Sequence record: PP328843.1
Direction: 5' to 3' (one strand)
Origin: Escherichia phage 215Ecol030PP
DNA: 64,000 bases
The translations under genes and the position numbers were made by a program. A model generated the notes under the pieces. The model saw only the letters and a list, made by a program, of their open reading frames with translations. It was not told the origin of the DNA and made no database searches. Shown in pieces: positions 5,255 to 40,220 of this stretch (the first letter of the stretch is position 1; the number at the start of each line of letters is the position of its first letter).

Positions 5255-5746
5255 ATGTTTGTAGATGATGTAACACGAGCGTTTGAATCTGGTGATTTTG
5301 CTCGACCTAACTTATTCCAAGTAGAAATTTCTTATCTTGGACAAAATTTTACGTTTCAATGTAAAGCCACTGCTTTACCAGCTGGTATTGTAGAAAAAAT
5401 TCCAGTCGGATTTATGAACCGTAAAATTAACGTAGCAGGTGATCGTACATTCGATGACTGGACTGTTACAGTAATGAACGATGAAGCTCATGATGCTCGT
5501 CAGAAGTTCGTTGATTGGCAAAGCATTGCTGCGGGGCAAGGAAACGAAATTACTGGTGGAAAACCTGCAGAGTATAAAAAGAGCGCTATCGTTCGTCAAT
5601 ATGCTCGTGACGCTAAAACAGTAACAAAAGAAATTGAAATTAAAGGTCTGTGGCCTACTAACGTGGGTGAACTTCAATTAGATTGGGATTCAAACAATGA
5701 AATCCAAACATTTGAAGTAACTCTTGCTCTCGATTATTGGGAATAA
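5255..5746 (+). CDS. 19: tail tube protein gp19
   Basis: 163 aa ORF, two TATAAATA motifs upstream. Confidence 0.93.
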   Translation: MFVDDVTRAFESGDFARPNLFQVEISYLGQNFTFQCKATALPAGIVEKIPVGFMNRKINVAGDRTFDDWTVTVMNDEAHDARQKFVDWQSIAAGQGNEITGGKPAEYKKSAIVRQYARDAKTVTKEIEIKGLWPTNVGELQLDWDSNNEIQTFEVTLALDYWE

Positions 5747-5778: not shown

Positions 5779-7403
<1,625 letters not shown>

Positions 7404-25339: not shown

Positions 25340-26304
25340 TGTATTCTTTAGAGGAATTTAATAATCAAGCAATAAACGCAGATTTCCAACGTAATAATAT
25401 GTTTAGCTGCGTTTTTGCAACAACTCCATCAACTAAAAGCTCTTCGTTGATAAGTTCAATTAGCAACTTTTCTTATAATAACTTGGGCCTAAATTCAGAT
25501 TGGTTAGGATTAACTCAAGGCGATATTAATCAGGGAATTACCACGCTAATTACTGCTGGCACACAAAAACTGATAAGAAAATCAGGGGTTAGTAAATATC
25601 TTATTGGTGCCATGAGTCAACGTACAGTTCAAAGTTTATTAGGCTCATTTACAGTTGGTACATATTTAATTGACTTCTTTAACATGGCATATAACTCATC
25701 TGGATTGATGATATACTCCGTAAAAATGCCAGAGAATAGATTATCCTATGAAACTGACTGGAACTATAATTCTCCTAATATTCGTATAACCGGAAGAGAA
25801 TTAGACCCTTTGGTTATTTCATTTAGAATGGATTCAGAGTCGTGTAATTATCGTGCAATGCAAGACTGGGTTAACGCTGTTCAAGACCCAGTAACTGGAT
25901 TGCGTGCTTTGCCGCAAGATGTCGAGGCAGATATTCAGGTTAATCTTCATTCTCGCAATGGATTACCACATACTGCGGTGATGTTCACTGGATGCATTCC
26001 AGTGTCCGTAAGCGCTCCTGAGTTATCATATGATGGAGATAACCAAATAACTACATTTGATGTTACTTTTGCGTATAGAGTGATGCAGGCTGGAGCAGTT
26101 GATAGACAAGCTGCCCTTGAATGGCTTGAATCTGCTACTATAAATGGTATTCAAAGCGTTCTCGGAAATAGTGGAGGTGTTACTGGACTATCTAATTCGC
26201 TTTCACGACTTAGTAGATTAGGGGGAACTGCAGGAAGCATTTCAAATATTAATACTATGACAGGAATTGTCAATTCGCAAAGTAAAATATTAGGAGCAAT
26301 ATAA
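25339..26304 (+). CDS. 54: baseplate tail tube initiator gp54
   Basis: 321 aa, ATGA overlap with gene 48, hairpin terminator follows. Confidence 0.92.
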   Translation: MYSLEEFNNQAINADFQRNNMFSCVFATTPSTKSSSLISSISNFSYNNLGLNSDWLGLTQGDINQGITTLITAGTQKLIRKSGVSKYLIGAMSQRTVQSLLGSFTVGTYLIDFFNMAYNSSGLMIYSVKMPENRLSYETDWNYNSPNIRITGRELDPLVISFRMDSESCNYRAMQDWVNAVQDPVTGLRALPQDVEADIQVNLHSRNGLPHTAVMFTGCIPVSVSAPELSYDGDNQITTFDVTFAYRVMQAGAVDRQAALEWLESATINGIQSVLGNSGGVTGLSNSLSRLSRLGGTAGSISNINTMTGIVNSQSKILGAI

Positions 26305-26306
26305 CA

Positions 26307-26338
26307 ATGGGGACCGAAAGGTCCCCATATTTTTATTT
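26307..26338. terminator. bidirectional terminator after gene 54
   Basis: ATGGGGACC-GAAA-GGTCCCCAT followed by ATTTTTATTT. Confidence 0.65.
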
Positions 26339-26623
26339 ACGGAATGAAATGAAAGCAGCAACTGAAGCAACTAAACTGTCTTCAATATAAACTTCAATTT
26401 TTACCGGAGCTTCTGACTCAAATTTACCTGTTACTACACCCTGAAAAATACTTTCAGTCTGTTCTGGCTTTGAAAAATTTTCAGAAGGAAAAATTCCAAA
26501 CTTTTTATCTGTTCCGAAAATTTTGATAAATTCATCATAAACCGCTTCGTTAAAAGCATTATCAGCAGGAATAACGCCTTCAACTACAAGTTCTTGACCT
26601 AAAAAGCGTAAAGAAGATTTCAT
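26333..26623 (-). CDS. hypothetical early protein (alt.-3 position)
   Basis: 96 aa ORF with SD GAGGA and early promoter upstream. Confidence 0.6.
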   Translation of the reverse strand: MKSSLRFLGQELVVEGVIPADNAFNEAVYDEFIKIFGTDKKFGIFPSENFSKPEQTESIFQGVVTGKFESEAPVKIEVYIEDSLVASVAAFISFRK

Positions 26624-26631
26624 TTTGTGTT

Positions 26632-26684
26632 CCTCATGTTATGTCAGTAAGACTACTATAACACAACACGAGGGACTTGTAAAC
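26632..26684 (-). repeat. 53-bp early promoter/leader element, copy A
   Basis: 52/53 identical to 40168-40220; contains GTTTAC and TATAGT. Confidence 0.8.
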
Positions 26685-26934
26685 TACATTTTGAACTTTT
26701 TAGTACGCGTAATAGGCATGCGTCGATTTTATACTGTTTCATTGTTTGAAGAGCAGTATCAAAAACAGCATTAATGACGCCAATTGGATTTCCACCCAAG
26801 TTTCTAAGCTTAACCAGTGATAATTTCTCGTTGACACCTATCATTACGATATGCATCATTTTATCGCCTGGCTTAACGTTTTTATTTGTATCACCGCCAG
26901 AGGTGTATGTACAAAATCTAAATCCAGGAAGCAC
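26656..26934 (-). CDS. Alt N-terminal paralog fragment (alt.-2/alt.-1 position)
   Basis: 92 aa; PGFRFCTYTSGGDTNKNVKPGDKMMHIV... parallels Alt residues about 41-140. Confidence 0.6.
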   Translation of the reverse strand: MLPGFRFCTYTSGGDTNKNVKPGDKMMHIVMIGVNEKLSLVKLRNLGGNPIGVINAVFDTALQTMKQYKIDACLLRVLKSSKCSLQVPRVVL

Positions 26935-27045
26935 GCTTTCTTCGTCGGCTTGAATAGCAAAAATTTGAGGTATTTTATGCTTAGGATTTAAGTTAACAAC
27001 CGGCGCCGAAGCGCCGTCAAATAATTATGTAATAAGTTCCATGAT
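26935..27045 (-). pseudogene. decayed 5' end of the alt paralog
   Basis: Minus strand reads ATG GAA CTT ATT ACA TAA (MELIT then stop) then a GC hairpin, then continues in Alt-like frame into the 26656-26934 ORF. Confidence 0.5.
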
Positions 27046-29103
27046 TTATCCTTGAACGAACTTGTAAGGCATGTTTGCAATATCTATGCAAGACGCAATA
27101 ATTCCAAGAGATGATTCTACTTTCTGTTTAACATTTGATGAAACAAATGATGCAAAGTCAACTCTGTCTTCTATTTCAATATCACCTGTCATTGCAACTA
27201 CTTCACCGGTTTCCATTAAACGGTCTCCGTCATAAATTACCGATTCGGTGAGTTCTTCTGTGGTCATAACTTCAGCTTGAATAAGCTTGTTGTTAGTTCT
27301 AACTGTTCCATCGTTGTAAGATGCATCGGTTATTTTATTAACTTTGACCATTAATCCACGTGGCAAAATGACTTCCATTTCATTTGAAGGCGCTAAACTT
27401 CCACCAGGTAAAACAACATTGACCTTATCAGCCCCAGTAATAACCCATCCAATTCCAACTAAATTATCGCTAGAATTTACTAGTCCTTCATCAGTTTTAT
27501 CAATAGAAACACTTAGACGTTTTTCGTCTGGTAAAACACCTATAGATGAATCAGTCATCCAAGTACCAAAAATATTTGGATATAATGATGTTGACACAAA
27601 GTTTCTAAAATAAAAAACTCGATTTTTTACCATTGCTTCATATATTGAAGGTAACATTCGTTGTGAACGATACAAAGTAATACCTTTTGGTAATCGTTCA
27701 CCATTTTTAAAGGCTGAATCTAAATTATCAATGGCTTGTTCTATTTCAGGTGCTGTTAAAATACTTGTACGCTCATCTGGATTATATAATCCCAAAAGAG
27801 CATTATTTATGTCTACATATCCTGAACCTACATATTCACGAATTCCGCGTTTTTGCGCTGGCGTGTATTTAGATGAATCTTTATTTTCGACTATAGGATG
27901 TAATGACCATCCAGCGGTAAGAGCATATCCACGTAATTCTCTTCGAATAATCTTTGTTTTTATTGCATTCCAAGAATTTTGTACTAACTCATTTGCAGCA
28001 TCTTGGTTTAAATGCGAATGTCTGTTAATATTTCTTTCAAACCAGGCACCTTTATATTTTTCTAAAGTATCATCGACGATAGAAGCAATAGTTTCTAAAG
28101 TTTTTATTGAAGTAATAGATTCTTTTCGTAATTTTTCTAAAGCTTTATTTTTTATTTCTGCATTAATAATGGATTCTTTATCTTCAGGAATTATAGAAGC
28201 TTCTCTGAATGCCATCCCAGCTGTAACACTGCTAAGAGCATTCTCTAGTGCAAATCCTGAAGTAGAAATTACCGTTAATTCATTAGAATCAGAAATTAAA
28301 GGCGCGTCCGCTGGTTTATTTAATTCTGCCGCTGAAGCCTCAAATTTTTGAAACATCGGTGTTTCAAATCTAGAAGATTCCAATGATTGACTTTGTGCAA
28401 TTGCTCTACGGGAAATTTTAACTTTAACGATTACAGCTTGGTCAGAACGTTTATCATTTTCTTGTGCAATAGATGCTGCAATTGCCTCATTTTTAGTTAC
28501 TTGAGCTCCAGTATCTTTATTGATATAAACATCACCGACCTTCGATTCAACCTTAGTAAAGAGCTCGGTACTAATTTCCGGAACTCCTGGAATGTCTTCT
28601 AGTGATACATTTTTGCGATGTATAAGAATATATGCATACTTTTTATCATAATCCCAGAGTTCCTTAAGAAGGACGTATCTGCCACCTGAACGACTACGGA
28701 TAAGTCTATCAGCAATAACTTGAATTTGTCGAGCTTGACCAGCAGTTTTAGACTTAAGAATACGAAGCATACAGGCATCAATTTTATACTGACGCATCGT
28801 CTGCATTGCAACAGTAAAAACTGAATTGATATAATTAATTGGGCTTGGACCAAGACCTTTCAATTTAGCAATTGAACCTTTAGCGGTTAATGTAAAAGGA
28901 ACAATATGCATCATTTTATCGCCCATCTTTAAATCACGATTAGTGTCACCTCCAGATGTATAGGTACATAAACGAAAGCCTGGTTGTTCAATTGCATCAT
29001 CAACATGAACTGAAAAAATTTGCGGTATTTTCTTCTTTGGATTTAAGTTTGTAATCGGAAGAGTAGTATCTTCGTCAAATAATTCTGTAATTAGTTCCAT
29101 CAT
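27046..29103 (-). CDS. alt: Alt, capsid-packaged ADP-ribosyltransferase
   Basis: 685 aa starting MMELITELFDEDTTLP; T4 Alt size and position. Confidence 0.92.
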   Translation of the reverse strand: MMELITELFDEDTTLPITNLNPKKKIPQIFSVHVDDAIEQPGFRLCTYTSGGDTNRDLKMGDKMMHIVPFTLTAKGSIAKLKGLGPSPINYINSVFTVAMQTMRQYKIDACMLRILKSKTAGQARQIQVIADRLIRSRSGGRYVLLKELWDYDKKYAYILIHRKNVSLEDIPGVPEISTELFTKVESKVGDVYINKDTGAQVTKNEAIAASIAQENDKRSDQAVIVKVKISRRAIAQSQSLESSRFETPMFQKFEASAAELNKPADAPLISDSNELTVISTSGFALENALSSVTAGMAFREASIIPEDKESIINAEIKNKALEKLRKESITSIKTLETIASIVDDTLEKYKGAWFERNINRHSHLNQDAANELVQNSWNAIKTKIIRRELRGYALTAGWSLHPIVENKDSSKYTPAQKRGIREYVGSGYVDINNALLGLYNPDERTSILTAPEIEQAIDNLDSAFKNGERLPKGITLYRSQRMLPSIYEAMVKNRVFYFRNFVSTSLYPNIFGTWMTDSSIGVLPDEKRLSVSIDKTDEGLVNSSDNLVGIGWVITGADKVNVVLPGGSLAPSNEMEVILPRGLMVKVNKITDASYNDGTVRTNNKLIQAEVMTTEELTESVIYDGDRLMETGEVVAMTGDIEIEDRVDFASFVSSNVKQKVESSLGIIASCIDIANMPYKFVQG

Positions 29104-29137
29104 ATCCTCTCTATTGTTTATTCTATTTATAAAATTA

Positions 29138-29155
29138 AAGGCCCGAAGGCCTTTA
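29138..29155 (-). terminator. hairpin between the 62-aa ORF and alt
   Basis: AAAGGCC-CGAA-GGCCTTT. Confidence 0.4.
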
Positions 29156-29341
29156 ATAATCTAGTGGTAAGAGAGTACGGTATATTTCAAACTTTGGACC
29201 TTTTTCATAGGCATCAAATGTTTCTGTGAATTTATTATAAGCATATGCATCTACAAATTCGAGAATGACTTGTGATACAGAAGTAGAAACATCTCCACCT
29301 TCTTTTTGAGCAATGACAATTGTTTCTAAGTAAGCTTTCAT
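29153..29341 (-). CDS. hypothetical small protein between gene 30 and alt
   Basis: 62 aa ORF, ATGA start/stop overlap with gene 30. Confidence 0.5.
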   Translation of the reverse strand: MKAYLETIVIAQKEGGDVSTSVSQVILEFVDAYAYNKFTETFDAYEKGPKFEIYRTLLPLDY

Positions 29342-30801
29342 AGACCAGTTACCTCATGAAAATCACCAAATACATCTTCGAACGTATTAGCTTTAGTTTT
29401 ATCTTCGCGTAAACGAATCGCAATCGGAAGAAATAATTTAACGTAATCAGTGCGGCCATCAGATTTTAACCAACCGTTGCATTCGCACTCTAGAATTTTT
29501 CCAATATAATAATTTTGGTTTTCCATAATGCGAGTACGGTCAAGTTCATGCGATTTTACACCGGCTTTATCTTTTAAGCCTGAACCAGCATTTACTTTAA
29601 TTTTTCCACACTCTGATTCAAGAATAAATCCACCTGCTTTAGTAGGGTCTTTACGGTGAGGATAAATTCCTACAATTTTTAAATCAACATCAATTACTTC
29701 TTTAAATTTATAGAGATTTTTTGAACGAGCATTTTCCCATAATCCATCGATATTTTTGAGAATAATACCTTCAAGACCTTGGTCAATATACTTTTTATAA
29801 ATTACCTTAGCTTCATCTAGGTTATTTACTACTTGGTTTTCAATTAAAATTACTTTATCATAGCCTGATGTCATTTGTTCTAGTTTAGAAAAACGTACAT
29901 CATATTTCAAACGAAATGCAGGAAGACCGTATATTTCTACCAACGGAACATAGTCCCAGACCTGAAACTTCATGCATTGAGCTTCTTTTTCAGAAATGGT
30001 TCCCTTTAAAGATTTATTAGCGATTCCATTAGAAGTAGTACGTGATTCAGCTACTTCGGCGAATTCTTTGGCTTTACTAATTTCAGGATAAGCATCAAAA
30101 AGAAAATCTAGGCCTTCTGGCTCCTTTTTAACTTGCTCATGGTATACCAATTCGCCATCAATTAACACGCCTTCTGGATGAATCTGGCGGGCTTCAGCGG
30201 TCATTTTGATTAATTCTTCCTTAAGAAGATCTAATCCTAGATATTCATTACCGGCTCGTGATAAAAGACGAACATCATCTAATTCATCACCTCTGACTTC
30301 GGCAAAGCACCGAGCTCCATCAGCTTTTAACTGGGCAAAGGCTGGAAATTTGATATTCTTATTAATGCCTTTTTCATCATAAGAACTTGCAAGCATTTGA
30401 GGTTGTTCAGGAATTAAACCTGGCCAAACTTTGTTTGCAATAGATACCGAAGCACCGCATTCAAGGTCTCGCATCATCACTCGACGCAAAACTTCAACAT
30501 CATCTTTTTTACCATCGGTGATGTATCCAGTTAATTCCTCAATTGCCGCATTTCCAGTCAATTTCCGAGTAGCTAACGTGAATTCAATGAAGTCAAGCAT
30601 ATCGGTAAGAGTCAACATTCCAAAACTCTGGGTAGCAATACCAGGTTTAGGCCATTTCTTGATATAATACTGCAACCCACGAGAATAAGTCAGACGATAT
30701 ACTCGTTTAAGCAATTCATTATCTTTATTCTTTTCAAGAATTGCTTGCTTCTGCTTAGTTGAACCAATAGATGCTATTTCGTTCAGAATTTTAAGAATCA
30801 T
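29338..30801 (-). CDS. 30: ATP-dependent DNA ligase gp30
   Basis: 487 aa; adenylation motif KADGAR. Confidence 0.95.
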   Translation of the reverse strand: MILKILNEIASIGSTKQKQAILEKNKDNELLKRVYRLTYSRGLQYYIKKWPKPGIATQSFGMLTLTDMLDFIEFTLATRKLTGNAAIEELTGYITDGKKDDVEVLRRVMMRDLECGASVSIANKVWPGLIPEQPQMLASSYDEKGINKNIKFPAFAQLKADGARCFAEVRGDELDDVRLLSRAGNEYLGLDLLKEELIKMTAEARQIHPEGVLIDGELVYHEQVKKEPEGLDFLFDAYPEISKAKEFAEVAESRTTSNGIANKSLKGTISEKEAQCMKFQVWDYVPLVEIYGLPAFRLKYDVRFSKLEQMTSGYDKVILIENQVVNNLDEAKVIYKKYIDQGLEGIILKNIDGLWENARSKNLYKFKEVIDVDLKIVGIYPHRKDPTKAGGFILESECGKIKVNAGSGLKDKAGVKSHELDRTRIMENQNYYIGKILECECNGWLKSDGRTDYVKLFLPIAIRLREDKTKANTFEDVFGDFHEVTGL

Positions 30802-40162: not shown

Positions 40163-40167
40163 AAAGT

Positions 40168-40220
40168 CCTCATGTTATGTCAGTAAGACTACTATAACAC
40201 AACACGAAGGACTTGTAAAC
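40168..40220 (-). repeat. 53-bp early promoter/leader element, copy B (upstream of alc)
   Basis: 52/53 identical to 26632-26684. Confidence 0.8.

Follow-up and report, generated by a model that had tools for sequence, protein, structure and literature searches.

The alt gene of bacteriophage T4 encodes a packaged NAD+:arginine ADP-ribosyltransferase (gpAlt, P12726). Between alt and alt.-3, T4 carries two small genes, alt.-1 and alt.-2 (UniProt P39495 and P39494; T4Tp203 and T4Tp202 in HM137666), which have been counted among the paralogous duplications of alt (Nolan et al. 2006, PMC1524935). According to a note in the GenBank record of T4T, both ORFs [quoted passage not shown]. In Yersinia phage fPS-2, the corresponding 92-aa ORF is annotated as "similar to N-terminal of ... 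Alt; putative pseudogene". The locus analyzed here, from a 64,000-nucleotide stretch of Escherichia phage 215Ecol030PP (PP328843.1; hereafter the window), occupies the same place and shares the arrangement of fPS-2. The T4 genes, with which the initial annotation had proposed a comparison, proved to be its right counterpart: nucleotide identity amounts to 97.5% over 801 nt (column identity 97%). The locus is therefore already known and explained in T4, and a nonsense mutation here replaces the T4 frameshift.

The genes of the region follow each other on the minus strand in the order gene 30 (DNA ligase, 29338-30801), alt.1 (29153-29341), alt (27046-29103), the remnant (26656-27042), and alt.-3 (26333-26623), while genes 54 and 48 (baseplate) lie on the plus strand and converge on the end of alt.-3; the whole order is that of T4T. 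The segment 24000-31000 is approximately 98% identical to the nearest records, none of which is identical to it. The first copy of alt encodes an intact, packaged ADP-ribosyltransferase of 685 aa (Pfam ADPrib_exo_Tox, E-value 8e-35) and is 97% identical to T4 alt. Near its C-terminus, the protein has a two-residue insertion in comparison to T4 Alt (GDIEIEDRVDF versus GDIEDRVDF), while the first copy in phage PP01 encodes 697 aa and is strongly diverged in the middle, so that the first copy, too, is mosaic among Tequatroviruses.

The alt stop codon (TAA, 27048-27046) is followed by ATC and the ATG of the remnant. As the initial annotation had read it, this ancestral start is followed by a premature stop (ATG GAA CTT ATT ACA TAA, 27042-27025 on the minus strand), giving MELIT. 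Alignment with T4T and fPS-2 places the lesion in codon 6, which is TAA in the window (T at 27027) and GAA in T4 and in the intact copies, so that the original beginning, MELITE, is identical to that of T4 Alt. With the TAA read as a sense codon, the remnant comprises 128 codons. Downstream of the five-codon stub, there is an ORF of 92 codons with a GTG start (26656-26934, minus strand), which begins at ancestral codon 37.

The remnant had been described as a repeat of the first ~400 bp of alt, with the ORF paralleling Alt residues 41-140. The similarity holds, over a shorter length: the minus-strand segment 27042-26695 repeats approximately 350 nt of the alt 5' end, with 64.8% identity over 348 nt in a global alignment, and the core 210 nt show 72% identity (BLASTN E-values from 1e-26 to 1e-28). 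Likewise, the ORF matches Alt from residue 41 on, as proposed, and the match ends at residue 118 (residues 3-80 of the ORF versus Alt 41-118, 51 of 78 residues or 65% identical, BLASTP E-value 8e-36). A profile match to phrog_802 (E-value 1.8e-34, profile positions 41-120) and matches to the PHROG families of alt.-1, alt.-2, and Alt-like proteins were also obtained, and the repeat is clearly real, far above chance. The homology to alt as a whole spans Alt residues ~1-118 and stops at 26695; the last 39 nt (26694-26656) correspond to the extreme 3' end of a lost gene and the DNA beyond it, out of frame. Beyond the ~118 homologous N-terminal residues, the remnant differs from T4 Alt in that it has lost the catalytic domain and carries a premature stop, and no protein from it has been detected; it is what remains of a paralog and not an isoform of Alt. 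Pfam returned no match for the reconstructed 128-aa product, and an Rfam search of 26200-27300 returned no RNA family, only two sub-threshold chance matches outside the remnant. Three plus-strand ORFs over the remnant (49, 59, and 46 aa) were considered and set aside as unsupported.

The origin of the remnant becomes apparent from phages in which the second copy is complete. Both PP01 (KMC22_gp215) and RB33 (RB33_195, there named "alt.-2") encode a 685-aa second copy between alt and alt.-3, and an intact second Alt-like gene is present in T2 and RB68 as well. Over its full length, the intact second copy shares 41% identity with Alt (E-value 4e-161), and its ADPrib_exo_Tox domain (PF03496) covers residues 416-620 according to Pfam. 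In a tblastn search with the repaired 128-aa sequence, residues 1-116 matched many phages at 97-98%, inside genes annotated as Alt-like ADP-ribosyltransferases. At the nucleotide level, the first 348 nt (116 codons) of the remnant are 94.5-97.1% identical to the intact copies of PP01 and RB33. The intact paralog and the remnant occupy the same site directly after alt, with the TAAATCATG overlap region, whereas codons 117-682 are wholly missing from the window.

The missing part has a well-defined junction. A 9-bp direct repeat, CTAAAAAGT, survives in one copy at 26695-26703 (minus strand), where the BLAST break points overlap by 9 nt. In RB33, both end points carry CTAAAAAGT (at 5340-5348 and 7039-7047 of the locus); the match of the remnant to the intact copy runs to 5348 and restarts at 7039. 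The lost DNA thus amounts to 1699 bp, including the catalytic domain (residues 416-620). As 1699 equals 3 x 566 + 1, the deletion shifts the frame, and the sequence reads ...LRVLKS|SKCSLQVPRVVL*. What is left consists of the first 116 codons, the last few codons out of frame, and the promoter of alt.-3. A 71-nt probe spanning the junction was fully covered in 89 phage records (megablast), and T4T shares the junction. The same 1699-bp junction, the same GC-rich hairpin near the beginning, and the same out-of-frame tail running into the alt.-3 promoter are found in T4 alt.-1/alt.-2, which demonstrates that 1699 bp of a second alt gene disappeared in one common event, in an ancestor shared by T4 and this phage. 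The deletion probably occurred by slipped mispairing or by illegitimate recombination between the 9-bp repeats. Deletions between short direct repeats are a classical feature of T4, known from the end points of rII deletions. As in those cases, each end point has a short repeat, of which a single copy is kept; the rII deletions, however, are laboratory mutants, whereas the present one is a natural event fixed in a wild phage lineage. We estimate at roughly 90% the probability that the remnant is a non-functional pseudogene of a second, full-length tandem alt-like ADP-ribosyltransferase gene. The view of the initial annotation, a decaying tandem paralog of the alt N-terminus, was accurate as to decay, paralogy, and adjacency to alt; what decayed, though, was once a full-length gene and not an N-terminus only.

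The distribution of the two states was surveyed with short diagnostic megablast queries against a phage collection and with a sample of 16 remnants; a survey of IMG/VR with a 116-aa query had given only eight loci, and the survey was therefore moved to the phage collection. A probe for the intact left boundary was covered in 321 phage records. The intact second paralog is hence the majority state in Tequatrovirus, and its loss places T4 and this phage in the minority. Relatives at approximately 64% identity encode two tandem full-length copies of alt, which indicates that the two-copy state is ancestral. In one of these relatives (IMGVR_UViG_2974573174_000001, L007, 3501-5623), the second paralog is split into ORFs of 392 and 315 aa in different frames, and the gene is intact, at 707 aa, in the sisters of this relative (L008 and L009); the split may represent an independent inactivation or a sequencing error.

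Consequently, T4 and about 90 sequenced relatives, this phage included, have lost a second injected Alt-like ADP-ribosyltransferase, while approximately 320 Tequatrovirus records keep one, and laboratory T4 is not representative for the Alt-type host-takeover function. The biologically interesting object is the intact second paralog, 41% identical to Alt, and the remnant itself matters little. For annotation, the 92-aa ORF should be described as a pseudogene fragment rather than as "RNA polymerase ADP-ribosyltransferase" or "hypothetical protein", and alt.-1 and alt.-2 in other records should be treated likewise.

The remnants differ in how their reading frame is broken. In T4, codon 6 is GAA and a 1-nt deletion in an A-run leaves overlapping ORFs of 61 and 67 aa, whereas in the window codon 6 is TAA and the frame is not shifted, hence the five-codon stub and the 92-codon ORF. 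The A-run (26879-26883, minus strand) is an intact A5 in the window versus A4 in T4, and it is this deletion that splits the T4 remnant into alt.-1 and alt.-2. Among the 16 remnants compared (15 aligned, with N2 added later), AV121 and N2 retain an uninterrupted 128-codon ORF. Only the TAA at codon 6 is present in the window, fPS-2, and EC128, and only the A-run deletion in T4T, G2540-3, RPN226, Pu-Krd-SF4, and two IMG/VR contigs. Both lesions are combined in ESh36, ELT1, GRNsp7, and T-01, while F25 has the A-run deletion and a second 1-nt deletion further on, in the alt.-2 part. There are, therefore, four ORF states in the sample, plus a fifth lesion in F25. In the phage collection, the exact 61-mer with the TAA was found in approximately 42-44 of 489 records.

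The occurrence of the two main lesions in every combination points to recurrent mutation or recombination and to the lack of selection for an open frame. We infer both an order for these later lesions and their independence. Variants found only in remnants are spread over codon positions 1, 2, and 3 as 8, 5, and 9, while those common to remnants and intact copies are distributed as 2, 2, and 11; this contrast suggests relaxed constraint, although the counts are small and only four intact copies served as reference. The divergence of the remnant from the intact copies (94.5-97.1% identity) is similar to that of the functional neighbor alt.-3 (95.9-97.6%), which implies that the loss is recent. 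By the same comparison, divergence alone is no sign of decay, and only the lesions that break the ORF are. In some lineages, a product may be possible, given the open frames of AV121 and N2. Moreover, the retention of ~390 nt of seemingly useless DNA in approximately 89 records, within a compact genome, could hint at a role at the RNA level or in spacing.

Such a role forms the first alternative: the remnant would be kept for its RNA, a hairpin stabilizing or partly terminating the 3' end of the late alt transcript, with the rest serving as a spacer that insulates alt from the alt.-3 promoter. This explanation is compatible with a pseudogene origin and only adds a present-day cis role; we regard it as rather unlikely. 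The hairpin, GGCGC-UUCG-GCGCC (GGCGCTTCGGCGCC), is located at 27002-27015 on the minus strand, starts 31 nt past the alt stop codon, and is extended by a sixth pair to 27001-27016. In the minimum free energy fold, the hairpin indeed forms, as a stable GC stem of 6 bp capped by a UUCG loop; on the other hand, folding of the 101-nt context gave a z-score of only -1.4. In 485 of 489 records, identity over the 61 nt around the hairpin reaches at least 95%, and none of the 16 sampled remnants varies inside the 14-nt hairpin, but with ~8% of sites variable, a 14-nt stretch free of variants is not significant. The C(UUCG)G motif recurs in a similar hairpin after alt.1, and a terminator-like hairpin follows alt.-3. 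Hairpins of the C(UUCG)G type are reportedly a classical observation in T4 intercistronic regions, made by Tuerk et al. in 1988.

Termination in the strict sense receives little encouragement from the sequence. The hairpin was considered as a canonical intrinsic terminator and found unsupported as such, since the GC stem-loop is there but the T-run is missing: the terminator scan did not call it, and the stem is directly followed by GTTGTTAACTT. Detection of alt.-1/alt.-2 RNA in T4 further implies that transcription is not cleanly stopped at this point. The evolutionary history argues in the same direction. Contrary to the initial annotation, which took the GC hairpin of the decaying copy for an insertion, the intact paralogs have the identical 14 nt as in-frame coding sequence (codons 10-15, D-G-A-S-A-P, in PP01 and IMG/VR loci), and the high identity of the remnant to these copies includes the hairpin codons. 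In comparison to alt, the region is a 15-nt segment in place of 18 nt. Since the hairpin sits within a translated gene in most phages, it was not selected as a 3'-UTR element, and it is absent from the second copy of the more distant relatives at ~64% identity. Still, it may act as a 3' stabilizer or weak terminator for alt mRNA, and its retention could set the 3' end and the dosage of this mRNA.

According to the favored pseudogene reading, alt transcripts would now extend through the remnant DNA as an untranslated 3' tail, with at most a five-residue MELIT peptide potentially produced by re-initiation past the alt stop. Any remaining role would probably reside in RNA or spacing, through the hairpin just past that stop and the alt.-3 early promoter abutting the 3' end. 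Time-resolved omics data for T4 are consistent with such read-through, because alt.-1 and alt.-2 RNA are listed there in the "middle" class, as is alt (PMC9697503).

The second alternative, which we consider very improbable, is that a fragment of the Alt N-domain is made, either from the 92-aa ORF or from a 67-aa alt.-2-like ORF starting at ATGATG (26859), and is packaged or modulates the packaging or activity of Alt. The ORF provides 92 open codons with 65% identity to Alt over its residues 3-80, T4 transcribes this region, and ORFs of the alt.-2 type form a family in PHROGs (phrog_15247). Translation, however, would have to overcome the TAA at codon 6 after the ancestral start. Neither the GTG at 26934, preceded by GAAGAAAGC, nor the ATGATG at 26859 has a convincing Shine-Dalgarno sequence. 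The product of the GTG would lack the first 36 residues, MELITE included, and its last 12 residues (SKCSLQVPRVVL) are a frame-shifted reading of the 3' end of the old gene and of the early promoter of alt.-3, i.e., translated promoter DNA. That relatives differ in their lesions, with an extra frameshift within the alt.-2 part in F25, also speaks against translation.

The available T4 proteome points the same way, with the reservation that it represents whole infection by T4 and not this phage, and that small proteins are easily missed. In the tables of that study, the protein class of both alt.-1 and alt.-2 is NA, Alt.-1 (P39495) has an LFQ of 0 in all 24 samples listed, and Alt.-2 (P39494) is not among the proteins listed (PMC9697503). 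Neither of the two is thus quantified among the proteins listed, at 85% proteome coverage, while Alt, Alt.1, and Alt.-3 all are (PMC9697503). As the start of alt.-1 is intact in T4, whereas a stop follows at codon 6 here, a product is even less likely in the window. Peptides specific to the 92-aa ORF would include GFRFCTYTSGGDTNK and the junction tail SSKCSLQVPR.

Packaging of such a peptide had been suggested on the grounds that the Alt N-terminus contains a capsid-targeting region. This turned out to be an assumption: among the internal proteins of the T4 head, a capsid-targeting sequence (CTS) is defined for IPII and IPIII only, that of Alt is undefined in the literature, and for gpAlt the literature gives only the removal of a small N-terminal peptide by gp21. 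The 92-aa ORF, moreover, differs from gp21-processed head proteins, as the expressed ORF would have no N-terminal targeting or propeptide sequence. In view of the early stop, the GTG 36 codons in without a good Shine-Dalgarno sequence, the promoter-derived tail, the differing lesions, and the T4 proteomics, a packaged peptide is unlikely. Equally hard to credit is a broader proposal, in which an Alt N-domain fragment (from the 128-codon frames of AV121 and N2, or by internal initiation here) would compete with or chaperone Alt or the partners of the lost paralog in head-core assembly and, separately, the hairpin would set the alt mRNA 3' end. If either the peptide or the hairpin had such a role, a pseudogene stump would have been co-opted in the compact genome of a lytic phage.

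A duplication of the alt 5' end only, in which a complete gene never existed and which the initial annotation had offered as a relic of a partial duplication, can practically be dismissed: although the window by itself repeats no more than ~350 nt of alt, identity of the remnant to the 5' end of the full-length paralog at this locus is 94.5-97.1%, versus ~65% to the adjacent alt, the 3' tail of the remnant is 94-100% identical to the last codons of that paralog, the 1699-bp junction bears the 9-bp microhomology that is the signature of a deletion, full-length tandem pairs exist in more distant relatives, and intact 685-aa copies (PP01, RB33, ~321 records) refute it directly.

The sequences on either side of the remnant contain further elements. 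The promoter scan identified an early-promoter-like site for alt.-3 at 26655-26683 (minus strand; (G)TTTACA, 17 nt, TG-n-TATAGT), which shares sequence with the last codons of the 92-aa ORF. The site agrees with GTTTAC, the -35 consensus of T4 early promoters (PMC1524935), and T4 alt.-3 is listed as early at both the RNA and the protein level in the time-resolved data (PMC9697503). The alt.-3 gene itself (26333-26623, minus strand; DUF5498) is intact and lies outside the remnant. T4 escapes the CmdTAC ADP-ribosyltransferase defense system when its Alt.-3 is lengthened at the C-terminus to 110 or 117 aa (PMC11618068); in the window, the protein has the normal length of 96 aa.

A 54-nt block occurs twice on the minus strand, at 26631-26684 and 40167-40220, with 53 of 54 bases identical and none expected by chance. 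It comprises early-promoter-like -35 and -10 elements, a leader, and a Shine-Dalgarno sequence (GTTTACAAGTCC[C/T]TCGTGTTGTGTTATAGTAGTCTTACTGACATAACATGAGGA). One copy is located upstream of alt.-3 and the other upstream of alc (Pfam ALC, E-value 8e-92), just after rnlA. As direct repeats 13.5 kb apart, the two copies could mediate duplication or deletion, and a second match place seen in many T4-type records may correspond to this repeat.

Between the convergent alt.-3 and gene 54, a GC-rich palindromic hairpin of 9 bp (ATGGGGACC GAAA GGTCCCCAT; 26307-26328, both strands) resembles a bidirectional terminator, and the annotations of fPS-2 and G2540-3 list it as a terminator. At the opposite end of the region, a hairpin with a T-run (AAAGGCC-UUCG-GGCCUUU; 29137-29160, minus strand) follows alt.1 and precedes a late-promoter-like TATAAATA (29124-29131, minus strand) approximately 20 nt upstream of the alt start. 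The combination of this late-promoter-like element with the preceding hairpin fits late synthesis of Alt for packaging.
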